The notes below the pieces were generated by a model that was not told where the DNA came from, did not search any database, and saw only the letters and a list, made by a program, of their open reading frames with translations. Below are positions 12,472 to 40,514 of a DNA stretch of 64,000 nt, piece by piece. This stretch comes from an uncultured Gammaproteobacteria bacterium (GTDB lineage Bacteria > Patescibacteriota > Microgenomatia > UBA8517 > JACQJR01), in the NCBI GenBank assembly GCA_964442455.1, contig CAYTZB010000001.1:85910-149909 (forward strand). The letters are read 5' to 3'. Every line of letters begins with the position of its first letter. Within the stretch, counting starts at the first letter, position 1. Position numbers and translations under genes: made by a program.

Positions 12472-13818
12472 ATGGATGTGGTGAAGACGGTATTTGGGAA
12501 GAGTCGTTGGTATGGGCCGATCAGAAACTTCCAACACTTCGTAGAAGCAGTCTTCGCAGTTATTAAAAATGGATATCCTGCGCGAGATTTAACGGTTATT
12601 GGTGTGACAGGAACAGACGGAAAGACAACAACGTCGCACATTATCTCATCAATTCTTCAAGAAGCAGGAATTAAAACTGCGCTTATCTCAAGCGTCGGTG
12701 CATTTATTGGTGATGAGGAGGTCGATACAGGCTTCCATGTAACGACTCCTGATCCAAAATTACTTCAACCACTTCTCGTAAAGATTAAAGAGAAAGGAAT
12801 AACCCATGTTGTTATAGAAGCAACATCTCATGGACTTGACCAACACAGACTTCTTGGATGTAATTTTAAAGTGGGAGTTTTGACAAATATTACTCATGAA
12901 CATTTAGATTACCATCAGACGTTTGAAAGATATAGAGACGCTAAAGTAAAGTTGTTTCGCGGTGTTAAAACTGCTGTTTTAAATAGAGACGATGACTCAT
13001 TTTCCTACATAAAATCAAAAACAAATCCTGGTACTCGTGTCATTGCTTACAGCGTAAAACAAAATGCTACGTTATGGGCAGATAAAGTTTCATTTAATTG
13101 GAAGGGTATGGAATTTCGTGTGAGAGAAGGAAGATCAAGTATTACGCTTACAACAAAACTTATTGGTGAATATAATGTTTCAAATATACTCGCTGCTGTT
13201 GGAGTCGCGCGCGGAATTGGAATTTCATGGGAAGCGATTAAGGAAGGGGTCGAAAGGTTTGGAGGAATTCCAGGAAGGATGGAAAGAGTTGATGAAGGAC
13301 AAACGTTTGCCACCTTTATTGATTTTGCACATACACCAGCGGCTCTTGAGAGCGTATTGACACTTCTTAAGAAATTAAAAACTCGAGATAGTAAACTCAT
13401 CGTTGTATTTGGAGCAGCAGGAGAACGGGATGTTAGCAAGAGGGCTTTGATGGGTGAAATTGCCGCCCGTTTGGCTGATTTTACCGTGTTGACTGCCGAG
13501 GATCCGCGTACCGAGAATCTTAACAGGATTATTGATGATATTACACGGGGGATAAGGCAAAATGCTAAAGTGTGGGATGGTGTTGTGGATTGGAGAAAAG
13601 AAGGAAGCTGGTGTATTCGAGTTCCTGAGCGGGGTGAAGCGATTGCATTTGCCGCTCAAAAGTTGGCGAAAGGTGGGGATATTTTGGTGATTTGCGGAAA
13701 AGGCCATGAGAAATCAATGGCATTTGATCACACCGAATACCCATGGTCAGACCAGGAAGCAGCTAGGGTAGCGCTCAAAGGGAAAATTAAAAGAGTAAAA
13801 AGAGGACAATTAACCTAA
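12472..13818 (+). CDS. murE: UDP-N-acetylmuramoyl-L-alanyl-D-glutamate--2,6-diaminopimelate (or L-lysine) ligase MurE
   Basis: Mur ligase P-loop GVTGTDGKTTT, central and C-terminal Mur ligase domains, DAP/Lys-binding region. Start ATG 12472 (MDVVK) is preferred over ATG 12442, which overlaps the promoter. Confidence 0.9.
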   Translation: MDVVKTVFGKSRWYGPIRNFQHFVEAVFAVIKNGYPARDLTVIGVTGTDGKTTTSHIISSILQEAGIKTALISSVGAFIGDEEVDTGFHVTTPDPKLLQPLLVKIKEKGITHVVIEATSHGLDQHRLLGCNFKVGVLTNITHEHLDYHQTFERYRDAKVKLFRGVKTAVLNRDDDSFSYIKSKTNPGTRVIAYSVKQNATLWADKVSFNWKGMEFRVREGRSSITLTTKLIGEYNVSNILAAVGVARGIGISWEAIKEGVERFGGIPGRMERVDEGQTFATFIDFAHTPAALESVLTLLKKLKTRDSKLIVVFGAAGERDVSKRALMGEIAARLADFTVLTAEDPRTENLNRIIDDITRGIRQNAKVWDGVVDWRKEGSWCIRVPERGEAIAFAAQKLAKGGDILVICGKGHEKSMAFDHTEYPWSDQEAARVALKGKIKRVKRGQLT

Positions 13819-13929
13819 TTGACCTAATTATTCTAATTTCTAAAGAATGTCTAATGACAATTTTAAGAATTTCATATTTGGGATTTCTTTAGGTTAATTA
13901 GAAATTAGTAATTAGAAATTTAAGTTTTT
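13795..13929. repeat. AT-rich intergenic repeat element B (CTAATT / TTAGAAATTAG motifs), copy 1
   Basis: Shares ATTAACCTAATTnACCTAATT, ATTTGGGATTT and AATTAGAAAT modules with 36437-36592. It contains the internal inverted repeat CTAATTTCTAA/TTAGAAATTAG. Confidence 0.5.
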
Positions 13930-26850: not shown

Positions 26851-26999
26851 ATTAGCATACGAGGAATCAAAATTTTTTACTCCGTTGTCCCCTTGAGAAC
26901 TGCTAAAAATTTATTCACCTAAAACCTGAGGATATTTCTCGACTATAGGCTCATTTTGTGCTAAAATACGCTTGAAATGGTAGAAAAAGAAATCTTTTT

Positions 27000-27021: not shown

Positions 27022-28794
27022 ATGATCGCTGAACGTCAAGAAAATAAAGCCGTTCAATTGAACGGTCGAGATTGGTTATCCCCTGAGGTTGATGATATTG
27101 CACGTCAAGCAATTAGAGATATGGTGCCGCAGAGATCTGAGGATGGTAATGGTTTGCATTCACAGGAAGAGTTAAATAATGCATTATCAATTTCTTCCTT
27201 TCGTAGAAATGGTCTCCTTGGAATGTTACATATAAAATTTGATGGCGATATTGAGCAAGCTTTAAGATTTGCATATCCTGAGATTTTTAGAAAACCACTT
27301 TTACATCTTGATGAACCTCATTATGGTGATCCTTTTCAAGAAACATGGAGGGAAAGAGAACGCGAAATTGAAGGCAGAATAATATCGACGATGGAAAGGA
27401 GTAGGTTAGGTCATATCTATTTCTACGATAATGAAGTTATTGATAGTGATCAAAAAGCAAGGAAACTTATGAAATTGGGTAGACGGGTCGAGCGCCATGT
27501 AAACCGAAGAAATACCCGTGAACGTCATCACGAAAAAATAGACGTTGACGAATGGCAGGGAAGAGAAAATGAAGATTTTCAAAGAGCAATAGTTCGTTTT
27601 CTAAAACTTGGTGATAGCGTCGCAGGTTTTCTCGGCAGCAACGATACTGAAATTCCACGTTCTATTTTAAATCGAATTGGACAACAAGGAGTATTTTATA
27701 TGATAGGTCGCAGAAATTATCCTTATAACGAACTCGCCGGTTCATTTCCTAACGCAAATAATAGAGGAATCGAGGACGAACTTTTAGCAAGAGCTCTTGA
27801 GTTGGGAGAGTCTTTAATATTGAACAACTACGATCAAGAACAAATAAAAAAAACACTTAACGGTCATAAAATCTATCCAGTTGTCTACAGACCTCCCAAT
27901 CTTCCTGAAGAAATTTCTCGACATTCTTTAAATGCTTTCATTGTGAGCGATCGAGTAAGGGAAATTTTGGAAGAATTTAGGGAAGATTTCCTATGGGCAA
28001 TAGATTCAGCTTTAAAACAAGGTGGATATTTAATTTTTCGAGAAAACGCCAGGCAACAGACAAATATTGAGTACTATGGCCAAGATCTTTGGTCTAGCAG
28101 ATATCAAAGAGTAGGGACGGGAACGAAATCGGCCCAATTAATGATTTTTCGTAAAGTTGCTACAGGTAATTCTATGGTTAGTATTTCTCAAACAGTTTCA
28201 GAAAGTTCTCAATCGACTGAAAATGAAGAGGAATTTGGAGTGTGTACTATTGAACATAAGTGGGAATTTGAAAACGGAGAAGGGGCTGATAAGCAAATTT
28301 ACGCAGCACTTAAGCATGTTATTGAACAAAAACATAGATTAAACGGGGAAGTTACAGAAGCTCAACAGATAGACGAGTTACTAAAAGGAACGTTGAGCGT
28401 AAGTTGGTTTAGGAAAACTGGGCTTTTGCCAATCTTATTTAGTCGGTTTGGCGGAAGTGTTGAAAAAGCAGCGGAGTTTGTTATAGAACATAACCAAGCA
28501 GGAAGAACTCCTCCAACTATTATCCAAAGATCTCCTGAAGGGGCAAAATCCTCTTATAATCTCTACGATCTTGCCAAAGAATTGGGAGTTAGGATAGATG
28601 TTATTAGAAAAACTCTAAATAATGCTGGTATAAAAGGAGTACAGTCACAAAGAAATAAAGGGAATTTTCACCCCCAAACAAGTAGAATGCAATTTTCTTA
28701 TCAGGAGTTTTTAACATTAAGAGATGTATTACGGAGGGATTTAAATGTAGAAAAGGCTACCAAGGAAAGGAGCGATAATGCAGAGAGAATTTGA
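27022..28794 (+). CDS. hypothetical protein (590 aa) with two copies of a WF[RQ]K-GLL ... FA[YW]PE-F repeat module
   Basis: Long ORF. Its repeats SSFRRNGLLGMLHIKFDGDIEQALRFAYPEIF and SWFRKTGLLPILFSRFGGSVEKAAEFV are shared with the N-terminus of the following giant protein. The C-terminus is HTH-like. Confidence 0.65.
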   Translation: MIAERQENKAVQLNGRDWLSPEVDDIARQAIRDMVPQRSEDGNGLHSQEELNNALSISSFRRNGLLGMLHIKFDGDIEQALRFAYPEIFRKPLLHLDEPHYGDPFQETWREREREIEGRIISTMERSRLGHIYFYDNEVIDSDQKARKLMKLGRRVERHVNRRNTRERHHEKIDVDEWQGRENEDFQRAIVRFLKLGDSVAGFLGSNDTEIPRSILNRIGQQGVFYMIGRRNYPYNELAGSFPNANNRGIEDELLARALELGESLILNNYDQEQIKKTLNGHKIYPVVYRPPNLPEEISRHSLNAFIVSDRVREILEEFREDFLWAIDSALKQGGYLIFRENARQQTNIEYYGQDLWSSRYQRVGTGTKSAQLMIFRKVATGNSMVSISQTVSESSQSTENEEEFGVCTIEHKWEFENGEGADKQIYAALKHVIEQKHRLNGEVTEAQQIDELLKGTLSVSWFRKTGLLPILFSRFGGSVEKAAEFVIEHNQAGRTPPTIIQRSPEGAKSSYNLYDLAKELGVRIDVIRKTLNNAGIKGVQSQRNKGNFHPQTSRMQFSYQEFLTLRDVLRRDLNVEKATKERSDNAERI

Positions 28795-31700
28795 ATCTCA
28801 AAGAACGATAGAAATAACACCGGGCAAATCTCCAACTAATGAAGTTATAGAAAGGGTAGGTAGAGAAATAACTCACTGTGATTTGCTCCATATGTGGAAT
28901 TTTGAGGTGGATGGGAGGAACCAGCAAGAGATAGATGAAGAACTTCAGGAAGCAATAAGGCATGTTGTAACGTATACACATACCATCAATGGTGCAGAGT
29001 ATGGAGGCTACCTACCTGATGAGACACTTGAAGAAAAATTGAATTTAGCGTGGTTTCAGAAAGTGGGACTGTTAAAACCAGTGGCGTTGCAGTTTAAGGG
29101 TGAAATTGCAGATGTTGTTCGGTTTGCGTGGCCTGAAGGATTTCACCAGGAAGAGCAAGAGAGAGTCCAGGCGTTTCGTTTGAGACCAGATACAATTGAA
29201 TTTTGGCAGGAATTAAAGAAAGATCTAGAAGGAATACAAACGCCCAAAAATATGGCACTTTCAACTTTTATGATGTATTACGATCCTCGAACAAAAAGGC
29301 AATCTTATCTTGAGGGAGGTAAATATATATACCTTTACGGCCTCTTTTTTCAGGATACATTAGCTGAAGAGTCGATTCATAACCCGGTTGATTATTTAAG
29401 CTCCCGATTCAATCCACCTCGTGATAATCAAGAATTTATTGATCTAGTCAAGGAAACACGTGAGCTTGCGGAGATAAAGCTTCGTAAACCCTATGGAAGT
29501 GTTATGGACATACAAGAAAGGCTTGCAGATCCTAGTTTTTTGGAAGAGTTTGTAATAGATTTGAACGAATATACTGAAGATTTCACTTTTGCTAACTTTA
29601 TGCAAGGCTGGTTGAATTATACAACTCCCAATGGTGACATCATACGGTGGAGTGCTAGAGGAAAGTACAGAGAGCTTCTCAATGATCTTTTAGCACGAAG
29701 GTGGATTGCACAACTGGGCGAAAATGCCGGTTCTGAATCTACACCAAAAAAACCCGCTGAAATATTTTATGAAGCTGCTCCGCAGAACCTCAAACTTTTA
29801 CTTTTGGCGAAATTTCCGAAGGATTTTTCCCATCTTACACTCGAAAGTTTGGAACAGAGTCAGGTAGTGTCAGATGAAGTTCGTGCAATACTTGAAGAGA
29901 CCAGCTTACTGGGAGTTGATAGTCAAGATCGTATTTTAGAGACGCTTGGGAATTATATCTTAGCTAAACATAAAAATAATGAAAGTCTTAATTATCTTGA
30001 TGGTCAACGAATTAAGACGATTTTACTTCAAGTTTCTCAACAAATTCTTCCCGCAGTTATTAGAAGAGCTGCTTCTTCCAAAACGGAGAGCGTTTTAACC
30101 GATAGTCGCATAGTTCCTACAGTTTTGAGCGAAGCAAACTCAGAGAATCAAGAAGTTGCTGACTCTGCCCAAGAGTTGTTGGAATCTCTTAGGGAGGCGT
30201 ACTACTTTCCCCTGCTTAAAAGTTTACTTTACAAACCAACAGCGCTTTTTTGGACTTCATATTTAACTGAGCACCCCGAAGAGGTAACAGTTCCTCCTGC
30301 CATGTTAATTAATTTCCTTGAAAAGCATTTAAAAGGAAGAGTAGAAGAAATTGCTCTTCAAGGCGATCAAAAAGAGGTTCTTGGTTATTTAAGTCAAGAG
30401 GTACTTCCTAATGTCTATCGCCACTTTGCTGAAGTTGCTACCTTTGCCCAGACAATTGCTCACTTTAGAACAAAGGATATTGAAGGGAAACCTCAACATT
30501 TACTTTTTCACCAAGTAGAAGGAATTAAGAAATTGATCGAAGATAAAGGCGGAATTGTATCAGATGAACCTGGTACTGGCAAAACACTTATACTTGCGCT
30601 TTCTGCACTTAATCTGATGGACAGAAGCGGAATTGTTGGACGAGGTACACCTGGGCGCGCTTTAGTAGTTGGGACAAAATCAGTAATAGATAATTGGGAA
30701 AGTGAACTGGATGCACATATACGAACAGACTATATAGATGTTGTAAATGTCAACTTCACCAATCAGAAAGATAGACAAGTGAGTAGAGATGAGTTACAAG
30801 CCCGGTTACGTGAGCTAGAAAGATTACTTCGAAACCCTAGACATCAGAGACAAATGGTATTGGTCAATTACGATTTGTTCAGACACCCTACATTTAAAAA
30901 GATTTTGGGATCTTATCCGTTTGATTCTGTGATAGTTGATGAGGCACATAACGTTAAATCTCGGTTTCTTGAATCAATTAATACCTATGAGAAAAGCGAT
31001 GATTTACGGAGTAGCACGAGTGTAGCTAAAAGAACAAGGGGTCTTTATAGCTACATCAGAACTAGTCCTGACCTTTCTGTATTTTTTGCCACGAGTACAC
31101 CTTATGTTAAAGAGCTTGTCGAACCTCTTATTATGGCGCATTTAGTTAACGAACAACTTGTACCTAGAGAAAGGGTACAACAACTTATGGAAGATACTGT
31201 TGGAACTCACCAAGTATTAAGACAAGTGATGATTCGCAGAAAGAAAGAGGAGATAGCTGACTTACCACCTAAAGAAACGGTAGTAGTTCCGATTGATCTT
31301 ACTTTGCTTTCCGAGGAGGAGAAGCAAGAGTTTAAAGCAATAGCACAAGAGATTATGGAGAACGAAAATTTTGCTGCACGGTTTTATTCAATGCTTTCGC
31401 TTGAAGGTTTGGCCAAATATCCCTGGTTGACAGAAAAGGTTAAAGAGCTTATTTCAGATGGTCGCAAGGTAATTATCTTCACCCCCTTTGTGGTTGGAGA
31501 AAATCGATATACTGCGCCGATTAGTACCGCACGAATAGCAGCAAAATTAATGGGTGCAGGAATTCCAATCAACTCAGTTGCTGTTTTGGACGGAAGTTTA
31601 GATGAAGGAGAACGAATTAGTGTGCAAGGACGTTTTCGTAACCAGCGAGATCCGAAAGTTTTAGTTGGTAATTACATTACCGCAGGAGAGTCAATAACAC

Positions 31701-34700
31701 TCAACTCACCCACCAATAGAGCTACGGAAGTAATTATCTTTGTGGGGCCAAATACAATTACTCGCTATATTCAAGGGGTTGACCGAAGCCACAGAATTGG
31801 GCAAACAGAAAAAGTTACCATTCACATACCATATGTTACTGGAGATTTGCTTGGACGAGGTGAGACCTACGACGAAGCAGTAATTAAACGACTTATGGAT
31901 GAACTGGTAGTTTTTGGAGCTGTCGTCGACGGGCGATTCTTTATGGAGCCAAAAGATATCTATCAATCAATTATTCAAACAGATAGAGCAAAACCGAGAG
32001 GTAGTGTTGAATTTACACGAGAGCATCGACAACGATCAAGAGAGAGGCGACGTGGTCCTTATACACCTCGGTTGCCCGGAGAACCAACTCCAAGAGTAAT
32101 GATAAGTGAAGATGAGGTTATCGATTTTGGATGGATGCAAAATATTCGTGAGGTTGTTACTCGTGAGAGCGAGTCTGAACAGGATATAGTGAGAATGTAT
32201 CTAGAGCAGATAGGACAATACCCACTATTTAATCCGGATAATCCAAATCACGAAAGATTGGCGTTCGATTATTTTAAAAGTGACAGAACCCTTGATGAAT
32301 TAAAGATAGATTCAGAATTTCTTTCAATGATTAATCCGCGAGATAGAGAAGATTTTGGACGTGTTCTGACTGATAGCCAAAGTATTCAAGATTTAATTAT
32401 TAACTGTAATCTCCGCTTGGTAGTTTCAGTAGCTCGTCAACGTCAAGGTCGCGGCTTACCCCTTTTGGATTTAATACAAGAAGGAACATTTGGCTTAATG
32501 CATGCGGTTGAACTCTTCGAACCCGAGCGAGGAAATAAATTTTCAACATACGCAACGTGGTGGATACGCCAAAGTATAAACAGAGCGATCATGAATTCTT
32601 CGCAGACAATCCGATTGCCAGTTCATATGTATGAAAGAATTGGTTTGGCTCGGAGATTTGCAAGAGAATTTGAAGCTACAAATGGTCGCACCCCAAAAGT
32701 GAGTGAGCTGCGCGAGTTAGTTTTAACTCAAACAAAGTTTTCCGAAAGTGAAGTTGACTCTGTAATCGAAACCATTGCTTCAGGAGTTATGCAAATGGGC
32801 ACTTTGGACTTTGAGATTGGGGAAGATGGAGAAGATACATTATATGATGTCGTTGCCGACAAGAGAATGGATGTTGAAGCAACTGTTTTGGAAGAAACAG
32901 AGGATGATGAGCTGAATACTGAGGTAAAGAGGGCTCTGAAAGAGAATTTGGATGAAAGAGAAAGAAGAATAATAGAGTTAAGATTCGGTTTGGGTGAAAC
33001 AAGAGAGAGAACTCTAGAAGAAGTCGGACAAGAATTTGGATTGACACGAGAACGTGTTAGACAGATTCAGGAAAGAAGTTTAGGCAAACTTAGTAGAGAC
33101 AAACAATTACGCGCTCGGTGGGAAGGCGATGCTCCGAGTTTTGTGTATCATACGAGTGCAGAGCAAGCAGCCATCAGGTTAGGATTATTCAATAAGAAGC
33201 AAAGTTATGTCGAGAAAGTTGTCGCAGAGTTACCTCCCCATCTTCAGAGTGTGCTTAATCAACGTATTCTCAAAGCAGCATCTTTGATAAATGGAGATGC
33301 ACAAAATGGGACTTCCGAAGTGGATCAAAGTTATCAATTTACACTTGCACGACTTGCAGTATGGGAGAAGTTAGGGACACTTTATCCAGACGATTTAACT
33401 GACTCACGGCAACGTCGTGAAATATATGGAAAAGATTTTGGGCCATATTTTGACCTATCGCTTATGAAACGGTTGTATGAGCGAAGGGATGGTAGAGTTA
33501 GACTGTTAGATAATCGAGTGTTATCGCACTTTTTTGGATTTGGCGATGGTCAGAAACCCCTCTTAAGTGTAGAGAAAGTTACTCAAGAGCTAGGAATTCC
33601 ACAGGATACAGTTACCGCGGGTCTTCATAAGGGGTTGCAGGTACTTGAAGCTCCACCAGAGAAGAAAACCAGAGCAGAAGAGCTCAGCAGAGAACACAGC
33701 ATTGTTGCACAGGCGTTTCGCAATCAAGAGATTTGGGATCAAATTCCTGATAGAGAAAAAAGCATATTAACACTCTATTTCATACGTGGTGGCGATCAAC
33801 AAGTATTAAAAGAGAATTTTTCGAGAATTTTCGGGATTTCTCTGCCTGAAGTAGATGCACGAATAAACGCTGCAGTAGAGTTAACTGAACGACTTTTAAC
33901 AGAAATTCAGGCTAAACCAGAACGTCAACGAAGGGTAACAAGAGGAGAACTTAGAGATATGGTTGAAGGATTATTGAAAGAGTATCCTTGGTTGAGCAAT
34001 AGCGAAGTAACAGAGCATCTTTCAACAAAACTAAAACAAGATTTAAGCAAAGCTCGTGTTGACCAAGCGAGGAAGAGCTTGGTTGCCCTTGAGAGAGTAG
34101 AGTCACGGCGTGGAAAATTAGATATACTTGACTCAAGAGTCGAAGCATTACTACTCCAAGGATTAAAACCCCAGCAAATTGCTGAGAGTTTGGTTCAATC
34201 AGAAAAAAGAGTTATTGCTTCTATAAGAAGATTGATTAGCACAGGAAATCTTGATACCCAACTTATTCAGTGGAGAAACGATGGCCTTTCAAAGGAAGAA
34301 ATTGCTGAAAGAATAGGAAGTTCAGCTGTTACCATAGGGAGAAGGCTCCGGGTACATGTTGAATCTGGTGCTCTACCTTTCCATCCTCGTGATCCTCGGA
34401 CAGTTGATGATTCTGGAGTTACCGAGCACGTCAGAAACCTAGACGGTATGGTTGAGTCATTGATTCTTCAAGATCCAAAAATAAAAACTAAAGAAATTAT
34501 TGCTGCATTGGAACCTACAGTAGGAAAATACATGGCGGAATTAACAATCCGGAGAGCAAAGAAGCGGCTGGTAGCTGCAGGGAGAATACCTTCTCATTTA
34601 TTTAATCTTACCCATGAGGAAGCAGTAGCTTTAGATCAACAAGTAGAAGAATTGGTAAAAAACGGAAATCTCTCTTATAAAGAGATAGCTGCTGCATTGA

Positions 34701-34951
34701 ATCAGCCAATCAGCAGAATTAGAAATTCTAAAGAAAGACTTGTCAAGACTCGCAGAATTGAGCCTAATCCAAAGTATGTTGACAAAGGAGCTAGTGCAGC
34801 TCTAGAGGAGTACTTATCAACACATCATGGTGATGAAATTAATTTATCAGAGTTTGCGCGCTCTATTGGTATTAGCCGCGAACGCGCAAGCCAACTCTAC
34901 AAGCGGTTAACCAATTCGCAGCTTAAGGAATTAATGACGCGGAGGAAGTAA
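28778..34951 (+). CDS. giant multidomain protein (2057 aa): N-terminal unknown region, SNF2-family ATPase/helicase, complete sigma-70 (regions 1.2, 2, 3, 4) and a C-terminal array of HTH repeats
   Basis: SNF2 motifs: LLFHQVEGIKKL, DEPGTGKTL, VIVDEAHNVK, and helicase-C QGVDRSHRIGQ. Sigma motifs: VRMYLEQIGQ, DLIQEGTFGLMHAVELFEPERGNKFSTYATWWIRQSINRAI, RLPVHMYERI, and LRFGLGETRERTLEEVGQEFGLTRERVRQIQERSLGKL. A strong RBS (GGAAAGGAG) sits 6 nt upstream, with a 17-nt overlap onto the preceding gene. Confidence 0.85.
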   Translation: MQREFESQRTIEITPGKSPTNEVIERVGREITHCDLLHMWNFEVDGRNQQEIDEELQEAIRHVVTYTHTINGAEYGGYLPDETLEEKLNLAWFQKVGLLKPVALQFKGEIADVVRFAWPEGFHQEEQERVQAFRLRPDTIEFWQELKKDLEGIQTPKNMALSTFMMYYDPRTKRQSYLEGGKYIYLYGLFFQDTLAEESIHNPVDYLSSRFNPPRDNQEFIDLVKETRELAEIKLRKPYGSVMDIQERLADPSFLEEFVIDLNEYTEDFTFANFMQGWLNYTTPNGDIIRWSARGKYRELLNDLLARRWIAQLGENAGSESTPKKPAEIFYEAAPQNLKLLLLAKFPKDFSHLTLESLEQSQVVSDEVRAILEETSLLGVDSQDRILETLGNYILAKHKNNESLNYLDGQRIKTILLQVSQQILPAVIRRAASSKTESVLTDSRIVPTVLSEANSENQEVADSAQELLESLREAYYFPLLKSLLYKPTALFWTSYLTEHPEEVTVPPAMLINFLEKHLKGRVEEIALQGDQKEVLGYLSQEVLPNVYRHFAEVATFAQTIAHFRTKDIEGKPQHLLFHQVEGIKKLIEDKGGIVSDEPGTGKTLILALSALNLMDRSGIVGRGTPGRALVVGTKSVIDNWESELDAHIRTDYIDVVNVNFTNQKDRQVSRDELQARLRELERLLRNPRHQRQMVLVNYDLFRHPTFKKILGSYPFDSVIVDEAHNVKSRFLESINTYEKSDDLRSSTSVAKRTRGLYSYIRTSPDLSVFFATSTPYVKELVEPLIMAHLVNEQLVPRERVQQLMEDTVGTHQVLRQVMIRRKKEEIADLPPKETVVVPIDLTLLSEEEKQEFKAIAQEIMENENFAARFYSMLSLEGLAKYPWLTEKVKELISDGRKVIIFTPFVVGENRYTAPISTARIAAKLMGAGIPINSVAVLDGSLDEGERISVQGRFRNQRDPKVLVGNYITAGESITLNSPTNRATEVIIFVGPNTITRYIQGVDRSHRIGQTEKVTIHIPYVTGDLLGRGETYDEAVIKRLMDELVVFGAVVDGRFFMEPKDIYQSIIQTDRAKPRGSVEFTREHRQRSRERRRGPYTPRLPGEPTPRVMISEDEVIDFGWMQNIREVVTRESESEQDIVRMYLEQIGQYPLFNPDNPNHERLAFDYFKSDRTLDELKIDSEFLSMINPRDREDFGRVLTDSQSIQDLIINCNLRLVVSVARQRQGRGLPLLDLIQEGTFGLMHAVELFEPERGNKFSTYATWWIRQSINRAIMNSSQTIRLPVHMYERIGLARRFAREFEATNGRTPKVSELRELVLTQTKFSESEVDSVIETIASGVMQMGTLDFEIGEDGEDTLYDVVADKRMDVEATVLEETEDDELNTEVKRALKENLDERERRIIELRFGLGETRERTLEEVGQEFGLTRERVRQIQERSLGKLSRDKQLRARWEGDAPSFVYHTSAEQAAIRLGLFNKKQSYVEKVVAELPPHLQSVLNQRILKAASLINGDAQNGTSEVDQSYQFTLARLAVWEKLGTLYPDDLTDSRQRREIYGKDFGPYFDLSLMKRLYERRDGRVRLLDNRVLSHFFGFGDGQKPLLSVEKVTQELGIPQDTVTAGLHKGLQVLEAPPEKKTRAEELSREHSIVAQAFRNQEIWDQIPDREKSILTLYFIRGGDQQVLKENFSRIFGISLPEVDARINAAVELTERLLTEIQAKPERQRRVTRGELRDMVEGLLKEYPWLSNSEVTEHLSTKLKQDLSKARVDQARKSLVALERVESRRGKLDILDSRVEALLLQGLKPQQIAESLVQSEKRVIASIRRLISTGNLDTQLIQWRNDGLSKEEIAERIGSSAVTIGRRLRVHVESGALPFHPRDPRTVDDSGVTEHVRNLDGMVESLILQDPKIKTKEIIAALEPTVGKYMAELTIRRAKKRLVAAGRIPSHLFNLTHEEAVALDQQVEELVKNGNLSYKEIAAALNQPISRIRNSKERLVKTRRIEPNPKYVDKGASAALEEYLSTHHGDEINLSEFARSIGISRERASQLYKRLTNSQLKELMTRRK

Positions 34952-34995
34952 GAAAGTTGCTTTTACGCTTCTTGTAAGCTATACTACACACCGAT

Positions 34996-36351
34996 ATGGC
35001 AATAGAGAAACTTTTTTCAAGAATGAGGCAAGATGCCCTCGATAGCGCTTCTGGCCTTTCTGAAGAGCAAGCACATTTATTGCGTGAGGGAAAGGTAGAA
35101 GATGCTGAACAGAGAATGAACCAGGTGAAAATCGAGATAGCTAAAGCAAAAAAGGTTAATAGGATCGTTGCTGATATGTTGGATATTTTACGTGCAGCAG
35201 GTTTTGAACAACCTCCTGCTGAGTATCTTGAGCAAGTAGTAGCAAGAGAAGTATCAACTCCCGAACCCGTTTATGTAAAAGGGCAAAAATCGGGTCTTTT
35301 TAGTTTCCTCGCTCGATTATTTCCTTCAAAACAAGAACAAATATTTATTCCTGGACGACCCATTTCTCCTCTTAATCTTGTCGAAGAAGTTATGGGATCA
35401 AGACCAGTTGTAGAGGAGACAAGCGAAGAAGTGAAAGAGATTGGAGATATAGATAGAGAAGGAGAGGAAGTGGTAGCGGCAGTACCAACTCCTCCAATTG
35501 AAGCCAAAAGAGTGAGAGGTGATTTTGTGGAGCGCGAAGAAAAATTAGTATACGCAGCTCTTGCTGTTAATCCTAATAGAGATGGATTTCAATTTGAATC
35601 ATGGAGGAGTGTGTGGCGCCAGGCGTTTTCTGATGCCTTCGAGAATATTACCGATGAAAGAGAGCGTGACGATAAAGAAAAAAATTCGCAGATAGCCTCA
35701 TATTCTGCCCGCAGTGCTATTATTGTCAAACTTCAAAGAGTCAAAACTAATGCTCAGGACATTCCCCCTAAAGTAGCGAGTTTTCTTGAATGGGTTAAAA
35801 CTCAACCAGAATACGTTAATCTAAGTGTTGATGATATCTCCCTAATTATACAAAGACAAATAACCTTTGATGAAATTCGTCAAAAGGCAAGCCAAGCAGT
35901 AAATATCTTGCAAATAGAATCGCAACCCACAGAAGAGCAAGCGGTTTCTGGGGAACAAACTGAGTCAGTTCCACAACTGCCCTCGATTCAAGCATCAGAA
36001 AGCAGGGCAACAGAGCCACAAACGCTACAGTTAACAGGGCCAGAGCTTCACTTGCTTGCGCAGAAGTTACTTCAGGCAGCGCCAGCAGTATTAGAAAGAA
36101 CAGGAATAAGAATTCACACTGCAGATAGAGAAGAGATAGGTGGAATTATGGGGCGGCTCGCAAGTTCACCAGAAACTCTTCGTGCAAGCGAAACTTCTCT
36201 TGAAAGTCTCACACAGAAACTTGCTGCATATCTAAAAGACAAAGAAAAAGTATTTATGGAAAATGTCAGCAATGAGGATGCTCAGTATTTGATTACGTTT
36301 GTTGCGGGTATCAGTTCTGAAGACCTATTAAAAGAGTTTTTAAGTAGTTGA
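34996..36351 (+). CDS. hypothetical acidic protein (451 aa), co-located with the SNF2-sigma gene
   Basis: Long ORF rich in Glu and Gln. No recognised domain. Confidence 0.6.
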   Translation: MAIEKLFSRMRQDALDSASGLSEEQAHLLREGKVEDAEQRMNQVKIEIAKAKKVNRIVADMLDILRAAGFEQPPAEYLEQVVAREVSTPEPVYVKGQKSGLFSFLARLFPSKQEQIFIPGRPISPLNLVEEVMGSRPVVEETSEEVKEIGDIDREGEEVVAAVPTPPIEAKRVRGDFVEREEKLVYAALAVNPNRDGFQFESWRSVWRQAFSDAFENITDERERDDKEKNSQIASYSARSAIIVKLQRVKTNAQDIPPKVASFLEWVKTQPEYVNLSVDDISLIIQRQITFDEIRQKASQAVNILQIESQPTEEQAVSGEQTESVPQLPSIQASESRATEPQTLQLTGPELHLLAQKLLQAAPAVLERTGIRIHTADREEIGGIMGRLASSPETLRASETSLESLTQKLAAYLKDKEKVFMENVSNEDAQYLITFVAGISSEDLLKEFLSS

Positions 36352-36407
36352 CGCTTCTTTCCTCTCACCCAGAGATTCCCAGATGGCGATACGGCTCACT
36401 CGACCCC

Positions 36408-36436
36408 TTGACAACTCCTGAAAATTTATCCACAAT
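36408..36436 (+). promoter_or_regulatory. putative ftsZ promoter CCCCTTGACA, 17-nt spacer, CACAAT
   Basis: TTGACA at 36408-36413. The 17-nt spacer contains TGAAAATTTATC. The -10-like CACAAT is at 36431-36436. Confidence 0.4.
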
Positions 36437-36592
36437 AGGCCACAAGTGAAATTAACCTAATTAACCTAATTGCTCTAATTGATCTAAATTTTGAAGATTT
36501 GTAGTTTAAAAATTGGGATTTATTTAGAAATTAGAATAATTAGAAATAAGCAGAGCTTGTTTCTCGCAAGCTCGAAATTAGAAATTTTTAAA
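36437..36592. repeat. AT-rich intergenic repeat element B, copy 2 (upstream of ftsZ)
   Basis: Modules ATTAACCTAATTAACCTAATT, ATTGGGATTT and TTAGAAATTAGAATAATTAGAAAT are shared with 13795-13929. Confidence 0.5.
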
Positions 36593-37720: not shown

Positions 37721-37766
37721 CTTCTAGGATAAAACCTATAATATTTCTTCTACTCTTTAGTTGATA

Positions 37767-37775
37767 TGGTATACT
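37767..37775 (+). promoter_or_regulatory. extended -10 promoter TGgTATACT for the helicase gene (leaderless configuration)
   Basis: TGGTATACT lies 6 nt before ATG 37782. Confidence 0.35.
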
Positions 37776-37781
37776 ATCGGC

Positions 37782-40514
37782 ATGATTGCAACAACCGAAA
37801 GAGCTATACCAATAGGATTGACTGGCGATATCTCAAAGGATGGAATTCTTTCTCCAGGAACACAAATAGAGCTTGATCGTCTCCAAACTAATGCGGCTGA
37901 TGCTTGCATGGAATATCTAGATAGAATGGCACCAGATGCACCATTTCCTCTAGTTTTTATGGCAACTGGCGTCGGTAAGGGAAAAATTATTCACGAACTG
38001 ATTAAAAGGCAAAAAGCTCGAAAACAAGACTCGAAGATTTTGTTAGTTACAGGTACAAAAATTGTTTTAGTTGATCAGACTGATCAAGCTTTAACTGCTT
38101 ATCAGCAAGAACAAAATGATTTTGATATGGATGAGGATCTTGAACTGGACCAGATGGATTTTGAAAAAGAAGCGTTTGGAGAATACACATTTGATAAGTA
38201 TGGTAATCCGGATGTGGATGTTCAACTGGCAACAATTCAAAGAATTCAAAGGCAGCATAAAGAGGGGAAACTTAATGCGAATGATTTCGATCTACTAATA
38301 GTAGATGAAGTACATAATGTAGGAACCCAGAATAGGTTTAATGCAATTGATAACTTTCAAAGGGTTGTTGGTTTTACTGCTACTCCATATCGCTACACTG
38401 GCCCAATGAAAACACCACAAAGTTATGGATTTGAAATAATTACTTCGCTGTCCCTTCCCGAAGCACAAGAAAGGAAAATTCTTCCGCCTCTTTATGCACT
38501 GCAGATTAATACATCAGAATTACTAAAAGACGAACAAATACCTACCACGAGAACTGGAAAGATCGATTATTCGAAACTCGAGAAAGTTCTCAAGGCACAT
38601 CCGGAATTAAGGGAATTCATTGCGAATAGAGTTGCACCAATTATCAATTTTGAAGGGAGAAGTTATAAAACTGTTGTAACTGTTAACTTTGTGTGGGAAG
38701 CCCTGGAACTTGCCTGGTTATTTAGGGATAAAGGAATTAAGGTTGGTTTAGCAGTTAATCAATATGCCGCAAAGAATATTGATACCAAAGAAATACCAGC
38801 ATTGGACACGATTAGGAGATATAAACTGCCGGAAGGCGATCCAGAAAGCCTCCAGGTTTTAATTTCTCCTTATGTTATTTCGGAAGGTTTTGATGCTCCG
38901 GCAACAGAGATTTTAGTTTGGGCGTCTCCAACTGATTCATATCTGCGATACACGCAATATACTGGACGGCTGGCCAGAAGACATTTTGGTAAAGCTTATG
39001 GACTAGTTGTTGATTGTTTATACCAAACAAGCCAGTATGGTTGGACCTACAACTTTGCAATGTGGATGAAGGGATATGTACAAGAGTTAGAACCTGGACT
39101 TTTATATCTTGGCCCGATGTCAGAAATCAAAGATGTTGAAGTACTTAGACGCATACACGAGATTTCGGATAATATCCATATTCGTGAATTACAAAGGGAA
39201 GGAATACTACCTATTCAAGAAAACGACTTGCCGCTTTCACAAAATTGGATTCGACCTCTTTTCCAGGGAGATTGGCTTAGATTAACTTCTTTAATCGATG
39301 AGATTAAAGAAGAGTATAGAATCACTGGTGAGGAGGTATTTAATCAACTATTCACAACCAGGCTTAGTGGTAATCAACTTGTGCTCGTATGTACAAATAG
39401 AGATATTTTTATTCAACGGCTAATAGACAAAGGTGCTAAACCAAAGGTTGAAAAACCACGAGAGGGAGAGATTCCTTTGACTCAGATTAATCTACCCAAA
39501 CTCTTTGTTGGTAATTTTGAAGATACTTTGAGACCTATGCTTAATTCAATAATGGCGCGTATTAAAAATGAAGATCCAGAGGAATACCAGCGACTCTTTG
39601 CCAAACGAATGCAGGGTAGGGAAATCTATGTTTGCACAAATAAGGATAGACTTATTCAACTTATGGTTGAAGCTGGCGCAAAACTCAGGCCAGGGACTAA
39701 GGTAGCAAAAGAGAAAATGCAAACTAGCGATTTTGCTCTTACAGCAGATAATCTCGGAGAAACTTTTATTACTGGAAGAACAAAGAAGATAAGAGAAGTA
39801 ATAAGGAAAATAAAAGAAAGTTTGCCAGAAGGGGACTCTTTATTTACTTTTAGAGAATACAAGTATGCCGATGTTGAGGTAGTAACTGATTTCGATAGAT
39901 TTGTGCAATTAATGCTACAAACTGGAGTCAAACTCAGACCAAAAAATTTTATTCCAATTCAACCAAATGATATACAATTAAGTAGGGATTTATTAAAAAC
40001 ATTTTTAGGGCAATGGCGTGAAATTTCTACAACAGCGCAGCGAGCTAAAGAAAGACTTGAAAGACAATTCCCCGATGACTGTGATACTCTTTTTGTAGTT
40101 AGGACAACGAGAGTCCAAAATAAACCTCTTTGGATTGATGTATGTACAGACAGGTCTAAATTTATAAAAGCAATGGTAGAGGAAGGAGCTCGATTGAGAG
40201 ATCAGGCAGATATTAACCTTCTACCTATTCAAGAAAATGATATTGTTTTGAGCTTTGAATCTTTCTATTCGATTTCTACTACAAACTGGAGTAAATTAAA
40301 AGTTGTAATTAGACGAATTAAAGATAGGATAAAAGAGGAAATGCCAGAGGAATTCGAAAAGTTATTTGTAAAAAGGAAAAACCGTCGGGGGAAAAGTGAG
40401 GTCTGTACAGATAGAGGTTTATTTATTAAGTGGCTTGAAGAAGAGGGTGTTAAGCTAAGGCAAATTCCGCTAGTTGTGCGACATAGAAGTAGTAACTCTA
40501 ATCGTAACTCTTGA
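37782..40514 (+). CDS. superfamily-2 helicase (DEAH-type, restriction-enzyme-res/UvsW-like core) with five C-terminal tandem repeats of about 100 aa
   Basis: Motif I ATGVGKGK, motif II LLIVDEVHNV, motif III GFTATPY, and helicase-C EGFDAP and QYTGRLARR. The repeats each end with xTxR..FI..(L/M)...G(A/V)KLR. The start is ATG 37782 or the upstream TTG 37761. Confidence 0.8.
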   Translation: MIATTERAIPIGLTGDISKDGILSPGTQIELDRLQTNAADACMEYLDRMAPDAPFPLVFMATGVGKGKIIHELIKRQKARKQDSKILLVTGTKIVLVDQTDQALTAYQQEQNDFDMDEDLELDQMDFEKEAFGEYTFDKYGNPDVDVQLATIQRIQRQHKEGKLNANDFDLLIVDEVHNVGTQNRFNAIDNFQRVVGFTATPYRYTGPMKTPQSYGFEIITSLSLPEAQERKILPPLYALQINTSELLKDEQIPTTRTGKIDYSKLEKVLKAHPELREFIANRVAPIINFEGRSYKTVVTVNFVWEALELAWLFRDKGIKVGLAVNQYAAKNIDTKEIPALDTIRRYKLPEGDPESLQVLISPYVISEGFDAPATEILVWASPTDSYLRYTQYTGRLARRHFGKAYGLVVDCLYQTSQYGWTYNFAMWMKGYVQELEPGLLYLGPMSEIKDVEVLRRIHEISDNIHIRELQREGILPIQENDLPLSQNWIRPLFQGDWLRLTSLIDEIKEEYRITGEEVFNQLFTTRLSGNQLVLVCTNRDIFIQRLIDKGAKPKVEKPREGEIPLTQINLPKLFVGNFEDTLRPMLNSIMARIKNEDPEEYQRLFAKRMQGREIYVCTNKDRLIQLMVEAGAKLRPGTKVAKEKMQTSDFALTADNLGETFITGRTKKIREVIRKIKESLPEGDSLFTFREYKYADVEVVTDFDRFVQLMLQTGVKLRPKNFIPIQPNDIQLSRDLLKTFLGQWREISTTAQRAKERLERQFPDDCDTLFVVRTTRVQNKPLWIDVCTDRSKFIKAMVEEGARLRDQADINLLPIQENDIVLSFESFYSISTTNWSKLKVVIRRIKDRIKEEMPEEFEKLFVKRKNRRGKSEVCTDRGLFIKWLEEEGVKLRQIPLVVRHRSSNSNRNS

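Follow-up and report, generated by a model that had tools for sequence, protein, structure and literature searches.

In the usual view, a sigma factor reads promoters through a single sigma-2 and a single sigma-4 domain. We know of no described sigma-70 factor that carries extra copies of region 4, an array of helix-turn-helix (HTH) units behind region 4 or a fusion to an SNF2 ATPase. A literature search for an SNF2-sigma fusion, a repeated region 4 or a sigma factor with an HTH array likewise found no description; since its coverage was incomplete, this is only absence of evidence. Here we analyse a stretch of 64,000 nucleotides (the window) from GenBank assembly GCA_964442455.1 (contig CAYTZB010000001.1, positions 85,910 to 149,909; GTDB lineage Patescibacteriota, Microgenomatia), in which a single uninterrupted open reading frame (ORF; 28778..34951, + strand, 2057 aa) holds an SNF2 domain, a sigma-70 module and an HTH tail. 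Its product is called the giant below. An earlier note, made from the letters of this DNA, had pointed to HTH-like repeats after region 4.2 and judged that multiple DNA-binding -35 readers on one sigma factor would be highly unusual. An array at this place is real and unusual.

With the sigma-70 factors of group 1/2 the giant shares regions 1.2, 2, 3 and 4, which follow each other in the proper order and carry the canonical motifs, and the last unit of its tail (U9, see below) repeats the region 4.2 helix as SRER..Q. It differs from them by the absence of region 1.1, in whose place about 1100 residues are found, by the fusion to an SNF2 ATPase and by the HTH array past region 4. The nearest precedent for the tail is found among sigma factors of the extracytoplasmic function (ECF) type: two reports describe C-terminal extensions of ECF41, ECF42 and ECF56 that modulate activity (PMC3426412, PMC8999054). 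Like these factors the giant has an extra domain after region 4. Nevertheless, they consist of sigma-2 and sigma-4 only and their extensions are SnoaL-like or otherwise non-HTH, whereas the giant has regions 1.2 and 3 and an extension made of HTH units. Because regions 1.2 and 3 are present, the giant is not an ECF sigma factor. For the SNF2 part the comparison is RapA (HepA), an RNA polymerase-associated Swi2/Snf2 ATPase (PMC8501970). In both cases an SNF2 ATPase would work in physical contact with the transcription machinery, as RapA does by binding and as the giant would by covalent fusion to sigma, but RapA is not fused to a sigma factor and the N-terminal region of the giant is unrelated to it. 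The RapA model (NF003426) scored 25.6 bits against a cutoff of 576 and matched at profile positions 243–297 only.

We are highly confident of the overall layout of the giant, namely an N-terminal region followed by the SNF2 ATPase, the sigma-70 module and the HTH array; all of its features lie on the + strand. The acidic N-terminal region (aa 1–560, 28778..30457) is unassigned, without a Pfam domain match, and is kept in the other giants described below (family alignment A3). Its residues 29–161 are homologous to two stretches (aa 25–134 and aa 408–491) of the 590-aa protein encoded directly upstream, and a repeated domain appears to be common to both proteins. The ATPase (aa 578–1008, 30509..31801) belongs to the SNF2 family, as both the SNF2-related N-lobe and the Helicase_C lobe were found by Pfam (SNF2-rel_dom 59.2 bits, ResIII, Helicase_C 29 bits); its sequence matches in the PDB are HELLS, ISWI and INO80. 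The sigma-70 module (aa 1136–1438, 32183..33091) is complete. Pfam recognizes region 1.2 weakly (aa 1136–1154), region 2 at 65.9, region 3 at 23.8 and region 4 at 83.2 bits, and the NCBIfam models for cyanobacterial RpoD, RpoS and RpoD score 241, 227 and 220 bits. Model TIGR02997 is covered from position 1 to 297 of 298, but its 241 bits fall short of the 384.5 bits set as subfamily cutoff. The core-binding and -10/-35 motifs DLIQEG, YATWWIRQ and TRERVRQI are all found in the translation between aa 1231 and 1430, the last of them at aa 1423 within canonical region 4 (aa 1390–1438).

Helix-turn-helix units in the C-terminal tail

The tail after region 4 comprises aa 1440–2057 (618 aa, 33095..34948). 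The span of 32100–34951 given for the array in the earlier note contains this extension proper and also takes in the sigma module. All six HTH-like peptides quoted there were recovered exactly from the ORF (aa 1656–1696, 1796–1820, 1837–1859, 1903–1931, 1965–1988 and 2023–2044), each of them downstream of the Pfam Sigma70_r4 match of canonical region 4. Instead of at least six units, at least eight are supported, two of which (U2 and U4) had been missed. In our numbering U0 is canonical region 4 and U1 to U9 are the units of the tail.

With the tail alone as query, Pfam Sigma70_r4 (PF04545) reached a summed score of 45.2 bits (E 6.5e-12) and Sigma70_r4_2 (PF08281) 27.1 bits, besides weaker matches to HTH_24, HTH_23, HTH_38 and GerE. 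The gathering scores are 24.1 bits for Sigma70_r4 and 23.5 bits for GerE (PF00196), and with PF04545 the single units U3, U8 and U9 scored 13.9, 16.6 and 20.3 bits. The fourth quoted segment has no Pfam match, and GerE stayed under its cutoff. A hidden Markov model (HMM) of sigma-4, built from canonical region 4 of 13 family members, scored the real tail at 14.5 bits compared to a maximum of 9.4 bits in 1000 shuffles. Furthermore, a unit HMM derived from relatives recognized U5, U6 and U8 with 27–38 bits.

An AlphaFold2 model calculated from a 12-row alignment was all-helical, with a mean predicted local distance difference test (pLDDT) score of 74.8. The HTH fold, consisting of an eight-residue helix, a three-residue turn and a long helix, is seen in U2, U3, U6, U8 and U9 of this model (pLDDT about 80–94). 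A model from the single sequence was uninformative (pLDDT 42). Foldseek searches of the PDB with the tail model returned many sigma factors, including domain-size matches to domain 4 of SigA (4g6d_A; template modelling (TM) score 0.76, root-mean-square deviation 2.4 Å over 64 columns, with the matching unit not specified; and 6onu_H, TM score 0.65).

A generic helical tail, whose amphipathic helices are merely HTH-like by chance, would account for single-unit Pfam scores under the gathering thresholds and for the poor single-sequence model. We give this explanation next to no credence, and it is already refuted by the profile, shuffle, family and model results: the summed Sigma70_r4 E-value, the fact that none of the 1000 shuffles reached the real score, 43 library representatives matching the tail, the unit HMM scores and the canonical HTH geometry of the alignment-based model.

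By sequence, the tail is built from four kinds of unit. The first kind is sigma-4-like and comprises U2 and U3, both of which align with all of region 4. U2 (aa 1576–1623, 33503..33646) is a full domain with both 4.1 and 4.2 and the best sigma-4 copy in the tail: in HHalign, a profile-profile comparison of the per-unit family alignments, it matched the family sigma-4 profile (U0) with a probability of 96.2% over 47 columns spanning 4.1 and 4.2, and it scored 8.9 bits (independent E-value 7e-5) with the family sigma-4 HMM. Its HTH is modelled with a pLDDT of 85–94 and its recognition helix reads PQDTVTAGLHKG. U3 (aa 1655–1707, 33740..33898; first quoted segment) is acidic with a net charge of -4, matches U0 with 71% over 51 columns, has a modelled HTH (pLDDT 80–86) and is kept in six giants.

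The second kind, with an extended turn, comprises U4 and its paralogue U7. U4 (aa 1724–1771, 33947..34090) has no Pfam match but aligns with U7 at 99.2% over 46 columns; in the AlphaFold2 model it is one long helix of low confidence because the alignment is shallow there. U7 (aa 1888–1935, 34439..34582; fourth quoted segment) is a basic three-helix unit (net +5) with a five-residue turn, modelled with a pLDDT of 82–92, and its HHalign probability is 99% to U4 and 96% to U5 and U8.

Units of the third kind, U5, U6 and U8, are 38 aa long and share the consensus AQVKELRNQGLSNKEIAERLGVSKSTVRRSISRLIKAG. U5 (aa 1783–1823, 34124..34246; second quoted segment) is of the LuxR/sigma-4_2 type, with 13.8 bits for GerE and 31.6 bits for the unit HMM. 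U6 (aa 1826–1864, 34253..34369; third quoted segment) opens a cassette of four HTHs, U6 to U9; it matches HTH_38 at 17.5 bits, 12 further HTH families and the unit HMM at 27.2 bits, and its HTH is modelled with a pLDDT of 87–89. U8 (aa 1952–1992, 34631..34753; fifth quoted segment), a basic unit (net +3) with an HTH in the model, scores 18.2 bits with HTH_24 and 38 bits with the unit HMM. HHalign gave 99.6% (43 columns) for U5 with U8 and 99.2% (41 columns) for U5 with U6, values which are inflated because the profiles of U5, U6 and U8 share paralogous member sequences. The fourth kind is the terminal unit U9 (aa 2008–2044, 34799..34909; sixth quoted segment), a second copy of sigma-4.2 with the motif SRERASQL at aa 2033. 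Its Sigma70_r4 match has an E-value of 3.8e-4, and it aligns with U0 at 93.4% over the 27 columns of the HTH. The array is no uniform set of region-4/LuxR-type -35 readers, and no unit reaches the GerE gathering score.

Between region 4 and these units lies a junction motif, ARWEGDAPSFVYHTSAEQAAIRLGLFN (aa 1446–1472, 33113..33193), which directly follows region 4 and has a low pLDDT. All relatives with a sigma module and a retained canonical region 4 show a match to it, whether they have the helicase or not (alignment A6). U1 (aa 1484–1533, 33227..33376) is a doubtful, degenerate unit with two helices and a disordered middle in the model; it has no profile support, its HHalign probability to any other unit is below 1%, and the orthologous stretch in the relative P0001 reads LSSEEIASAEGLSEGEV. 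Inside the cassette U6 and U7 are joined by the conserved linker ALPFHPRDPRTVDDSGVTEHVRN (aa 1865–1887, 34370..34438), which contains a small beta-bridge ('wing'). According to family alignments A2 and A4, no other stretch of the cassette is as well conserved (consensus LPxHPRDPRTVDxxGxTEHTRxLD).

Pairwise identity between units is only 23–45% (alignments of at least 30 residues), and at the DNA level Tandem Repeats Finder reported no tandem repeats within the coding sequence. A recent duplication at the DNA level is thereby ruled out, and the array is old rather than recently expanded.

Two groups of known HTH proteins resemble the units. U5, U6 and U8 follow the LuxR/GerE and Sigma70_r4_2 pattern of a helix with G-L-S-x-x-E-I-A, a turn and a recognition helix, and the summed GerE scores of relatives are strong (72–118 bits). 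The giant itself differs from this group in its GerE scores, which range from 13.8 bits (U5) to 16.4 bits (whole tail), and in its units, which have three helices in about 38–48 aa and no fourth, dimerisation helix; Pfam detected no receiver or ligand-binding domain in the giant. The second group comprises Cbp1/Cbp2, paired domains and Tc1/IS630 transposases, which likewise have tandem three-helix HTH units with short basic or conserved linkers. In that group two to three units make up a small independent protein or the N-terminus of a transposase, whereas the giant carries six to eight units on a sigma factor and its relatives up to 12. Cbp2 is a bipartite HTH protein which binds direct DNA repeats via two HTHs tethered by a basic linker (PMC3597662). 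Its structure (2LVS) is the best natural PDB match of family profile A2 (E 5.2e-6), with the U8-to-U9 columns lying on both HTHs, and ranks after one de novo design. That top sequence match, the 'CAP repeat' 8VD6, was set aside as biologically uninformative, since it is a designed protein (PMC12339374). NCBIfam also gave weak matches to the bipartite HTH at the N-terminus of IS630, IS481 and IS21 transposases, and the BFVD matches included phage paired, psq and homeodomain-like multi-HTH proteins. No CRISPR-like array was found in the window by Tandem Repeats Finder, and neither a CRISPR nor a transposon context is evident there.

Architectures within the family

Word-indexed homologue searches with the tail alone or with the family alignment returned nothing, although relatives exist: an exhaustive HMMER search found them, yielding the 43 library representatives at E ≤ 1e-3. 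A scan of a genome collection with a pattern from the N-terminal region gave no match. Judged from these sequences, the tail is conserved in a small family of Patescibacteria, the candidate phyla radiation (CPR).

Seven members are SNF2-sigma giants of 1587–2057 aa, six of them library representatives and one encoded on a metagenome contig (locus L014). The architecture of the window's giant is found again in P0001 (49% identity over the full length), P0003, P0015, P0021, P0024 and the L014 giant. All giants have the N-terminal region, the SNF2 domain, the sigma module and the proximal part of the tail (CT1, aa 1446–1720), and vary in the number of distal units. CT1 is also kept in P0007, a relative that lacks the helicase.

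Helicase-less sigma factors of 570–1444 aa carry the motif W-x-x-D-x-P-S-F-x-Y-x-x-S-A-E after region 4 and up to 12 HTH units; the 38-aa repeat occurs up to 12 times in relatives. In eight of them (P0007, P0014, P0016, P0019, P0022, P0025, P0037 and P0040) canonical region 4 is without RER.RQ (e.g. GLMQDTIDII), and 2–12 extra units are present. This hints that reading of the -35 element by sigma-4 may have been given up in the helicase-less branch, and the loss of the signature is compatible with upstream recognition having passed to the array.

A third group consists of short sigma factors of about 490 aa (P0004, P0005, P0010), in which regions 1.2 to 3.2 are followed by the U6–U9 cassette where region 4 belongs. 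One such gene was located with the linker pattern in a metagenome-assembled genome of Candidatus Daviesbacteria (JACPZA010000035.1; L005, 5489–6976). The sole Sigma70_r4 match of the L005 protein, P0004 and P0005 lies at the extreme C-terminus. Finally, stand-alone cassettes and arrays of 96–849 aa occur. The cassette of the giant is 45% identical to those of the short sigma factors (151 bits) and 32% identical to the tails of the orthologous giants. Since it is closer to the former, module swapping is indicated. Evolution of this modular array appears to proceed through units being acquired, lost or exchanged.

DNA-contact residues and the possible role of the tail

The idea of several -35 readers on one sigma factor is only partly supported. 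The signature [ST]RER.[RS]Q[IL] occurs exactly twice per protein, in U0 and U9, in the window's giant, P0001, P0003 and the L014 giant. Among the extra units U9 is the only one with the -35-contact residues (R-E-R-x-R-Q); U2, U3 and U5 to U8 do not have them. U9 reads SRERASQL where the family consensus is SRERVRQLY, and four of the five RER.RQ residues are kept. The recognition helix TRERVRQI of U0 corresponds to PQDTVTAG in U2 and to LPEVDARI in U3, and the orthologues of U2 and U3 likewise have no basic recognition residues. With neutral or acidic residues in their recognition helices, U2 and U3 are unlikely to read a -35 element: they keep the sigma-4 fold but not the -35-contact residues.

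Such units could act as a built-in anti-sigma factor or a regulatory extension comparable to those of ECF41, ECF42 and ECF56, as the earlier suggestion of internal decoys implies. U2, U3 and possibly U9 would then compete with sigma-4 for the beta-flap tip or fold back on sigma-2/sigma-4. In line with this, U2 spans the whole of sigma-4 including 4.1 without DNA-contact residues, CT1 is conserved in the giants and P0007, and fused regulatory C-terminal domains are established in ECF sigma factors (PMC3426412, PMC8999054). Nevertheless, the AlphaFold2 model shows no confident inter-domain contacts (predicted TM score 0.36), and known regulatory extensions are SnoaL-like, Cys-rich or similar and not copies of sigma-4. 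Autoinhibition also leaves the basic distal block of six units and the relatives with 12 units unexplained, and the short sigma factors have the cassette instead of sigma-4, not beside it. We therefore regard autoinhibition as unlikely.

The two parts of the tail differ in charge. The proximal block CT1, which holds U2 and U3, has a net charge of 0, whereas the distal block (CT2, aa 1721–2057) with its six units U4 to U9 has a net charge of +11 and an isoelectric point of 9.7. Recognition-helix residues of the cassette (S, T, R, K, Q) are invariant at 41–43% overall identity; examples are S24, T27, R30, T98, R101, R105, Q151, R155, R162, K165, R209, E210 and Q214 of the cassette. We consider it possible, at somewhat less than an even chance, that CT2 is a tethered DNA-binding arm acting near or upstream of the -35 element. 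Such a multi-HTH nucleic-acid-binding arm would, in the holoenzyme, contact DNA at or upstream of -35 in the manner of the linked HTH pairs of Cbp1/Cbp2, paired domains and Tc1/IS630 transposases. Promoter recognition would thereby gain affinity or specificity, as if an activator or a reader of UP elements were built in, and a second hexamer resembling -35 may be recognized by U9. CT1 would not read DNA but serve as a folded spacer or for contacts with proteins; a comparison of its profile with the PDB gave only spurious matches to ribosomal protein L23. The DNA arm is suggested by the Cbp2 profile match, the weak IS630/IS481/IS21 matches and the multi-HTH matches in BFVD.

Several observations weigh against a DNA arm. 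Taken singly, the units score weakly (13.8–20.3 bits, E 4e-4 to 0.05), all below the Pfam gathering scores. U4 and U5 are not HTHs in the AlphaFold2 model, whose alignment had just 12 rows, and the relative placement of the domains is not fixed by a model with this predicted TM score. U9 has a net charge of -1 and a serine where the family has arginine. The best whole-model Foldseek matches, UFL1-DDRGK1 and the winged-helix domains 2–4 of SelB, are tandem winged-helix arrays binding protein or RNA, not DNA, and a conserved partner, whether protein or RNA, would explain the invariant polar residues just as well. Furthermore, no unit of the helicase-less relatives carries the sigma-4.2 signature, and the ability to read a -35-type element therefore cannot be a general property of the array.

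Genomic context, partner genes and implications

The gene of the giant lies within a division and cell wall (dcw) cluster, in the order penicillin-binding protein, Mur ligases, murB, mraY-like, murD, ftsW, murG, ftsA, 590-aa ORF, giant, 451-aa ORF, ftsZ; the isoleucyl-tRNA synthetase gene and four tRNA genes are close by. A phage origin of the window is ruled out by the dcw cluster, the synthetase and the tRNAs; the DNA is bacterial chromosome. Its FtsA protein clusters with a sequence that bears the annotation 'Patescibacteria group bacterium', and with the cassette relative from Candidatus Daviesbacteria this identifies the organism as a member of the CPR. No other sigma gene was found within the window.

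MzaA of the MZA anti-phage system is, like the giant, a long protein with a C-terminal sigma-70 module, and the sigma part has its best matches in NCBIfam and PADLOC to MzaA models (NF041931, 243 bits; PDLC02203, 160 bits). The giant might accordingly be no initiation factor at all, with the sigma module and the HTH array only targeting the SNF2 motor to DNA, as a nucleoid remodeller or in an MzaA-like defence, without forming a holoenzyme. Matches of the SNF2 part to ZorD and DpdE models and the long stretch that stands in for region 1.1 would fit. However, the MzaA score is far under the cutoff of 800, is confined to profile positions 470–705 in the sigma part and about equals the RpoD and RpoS scores. 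The SNF2 matches are generic and at domain level, and the core-binding and promoter-reading motifs of regions 2.2–2.4 and 4.2 are intact. Housekeeping genes surround the family's loci (dcw cluster, uvrAB, enolase, prfA, ftsEX), and the window offers no second sigma gene. A role outside initiation is in our judgement quite improbable. As to Mza partner genes, none were found near the giant, where the neighbours are dcw genes and two ORFs without PADLOC matches. A defence-system reading based on MzaA, Zorya or Dpd was ruled out, given generic domain-level matches far under the cutoffs and the housekeeping context.

The two ORFs flanking the giant are conserved partner genes without matches in Pfam, PADLOC or PHROGs. 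The upstream one encodes 590 aa (27022..28794, +) and overlaps the giant's gene by 17 nt. Its family is found directly upstream of giants in L001, L004, L007 and L009, and of the helicase-less P0007 in L012; at L014 a 612-aa ORF occupies the same upstream position and is likened to it by position alone. The downstream one encodes 451 aa (34996..36351, +), with homologues directly downstream of giants in L001, L007, L008 and L009. The three-gene module (27022–36351 in the window) is found, complete or with one partner, at all giants examined, while other housekeeping neighbours vary by locus. In this form it is present in the seven loci L001, L004, L007, L008, L009, L012 and L014.

The HTH/winged-helix units could instead form a scaffold for protein or RNA, docking the products of the 590-aa and 451-aa families, RNA polymerase-associated factors or nascent RNA. 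The module preserved in seven loci with differing neighbours speaks for a scaffold. So do the top Foldseek matches, since UFL1-DDRGK1 and SelB, which binds the selenocysteine insertion sequence (SECIS) RNA, are tandem winged-helix scaffolds, and the matches of relatives to the protein-binding winged-helix families PCI, RPA_C and DNA_pol3_delta_C. Yet these whole-model Foldseek scores are weak (E 3e-3, TM score 0.15–0.26), and among natural proteins of solved structure the one nearest by profile binds DNA repeats. A basic block with conserved Arg, Lys, Ser and Thr residues on its third helices, such as CT2, is typical of nucleic-acid readers, and U9 retains the sigma-4.2 DNA-contact signature. 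A scaffold is an explanation we hold to be rather unlikely, and the DNA-binding arm remains our preferred, tentative reading of CT2.

Several further elements were observed around the module. The gap between the giant and the 451-aa ORF (34952–34995) contains a good sigma-70-type promoter (TTGCTT, 17-nt spacer, TATACT), which may allow separate transcription of the 451-aa gene as well. A 28-nt promoter-like element, CCTTGA[G/C]AACT[G/C]CT[A/G]AAAATTTAT[T/C]CAC, occurs exactly twice in the window (26891–26918 and 36406–36433; 0 expected). One copy lies upstream of the 590-aa ORF, the other upstream of ftsZ, where it reads TTGACA, 17-nt spacer, CACAAT. The place of the module is between ftsA and ftsZ, so its insertion may have caused, or been served by, a duplication of the ftsZ promoter. 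Immediately behind ftsZ (37761–40514) lies the gene of a 917-aa ResIII/DEAD helicase, whose exact sequence is absent from the protein collection. Its C-terminal half contains about five to six repeats with a unit of about 90 aa ending in ...LF..R.....V(C)T(N/D)R..FI..L...GAK(L)R.

Tandem arrays with a 9-bp period of CTAATTNNN in three to five copies, followed about 40–70 nt further on by inverted AATTAG arrays, are present at 13808–13838 with 13890–13920 and at 36450–36490 with 36522–36550, in two leaders of the dcw cluster, that of a murC-like Mur ligase gene and that of ftsZ. For the pattern CTAATTNNNCTAATT, nine matches were counted compared to 0.9 expected. These CTAATT arrays could be a structured leader or a candidate binding site for a tandem-HTH protein. 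For the earlier suggestion that the array reads tandem upstream elements, the 9-bp arrays in the two gene leaders are the only lead, and a circumstantial one. In the related loci compared, neither these arrays nor the duplicated promoter element occur, and comparative support for a DNA target is therefore lacking.

Taken together, the giant combines known domain types in a previously undescribed architecture. In the broadest interpretation, which we consider improbable in its entirety, a sigma-70 factor would have turned into a modular promoter reader: DNA recognition at or upstream of -35 would have moved to an expandable array of 3–12 HTH units, sometimes ending in a second sigma-4.2 or replacing sigma-4, and in the giants coupled to an SNF2 translocase. 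Locating the promoter, remodelling or clearing the DNA and recruiting RNA polymerase would then all fall to a single polypeptide, which would compensate for the few classical transcription factors of tiny genomes. Its small size and clear delimitation make the family amenable to tests of the idea on recombinant fragments. A sigma factor with extra sigma-4 copies and a long HTH arm would represent a different solution to promoter recognition, and the case for this is stronger because relatives swap sigma-4 for the arm or have a sigma-4 stripped of its DNA-contact residues. The SNF2 fusion would be a bacterial remodeller wired directly to an initiation factor, and the finding bears on regulation in the small-genome CPR/Patescibacteria.

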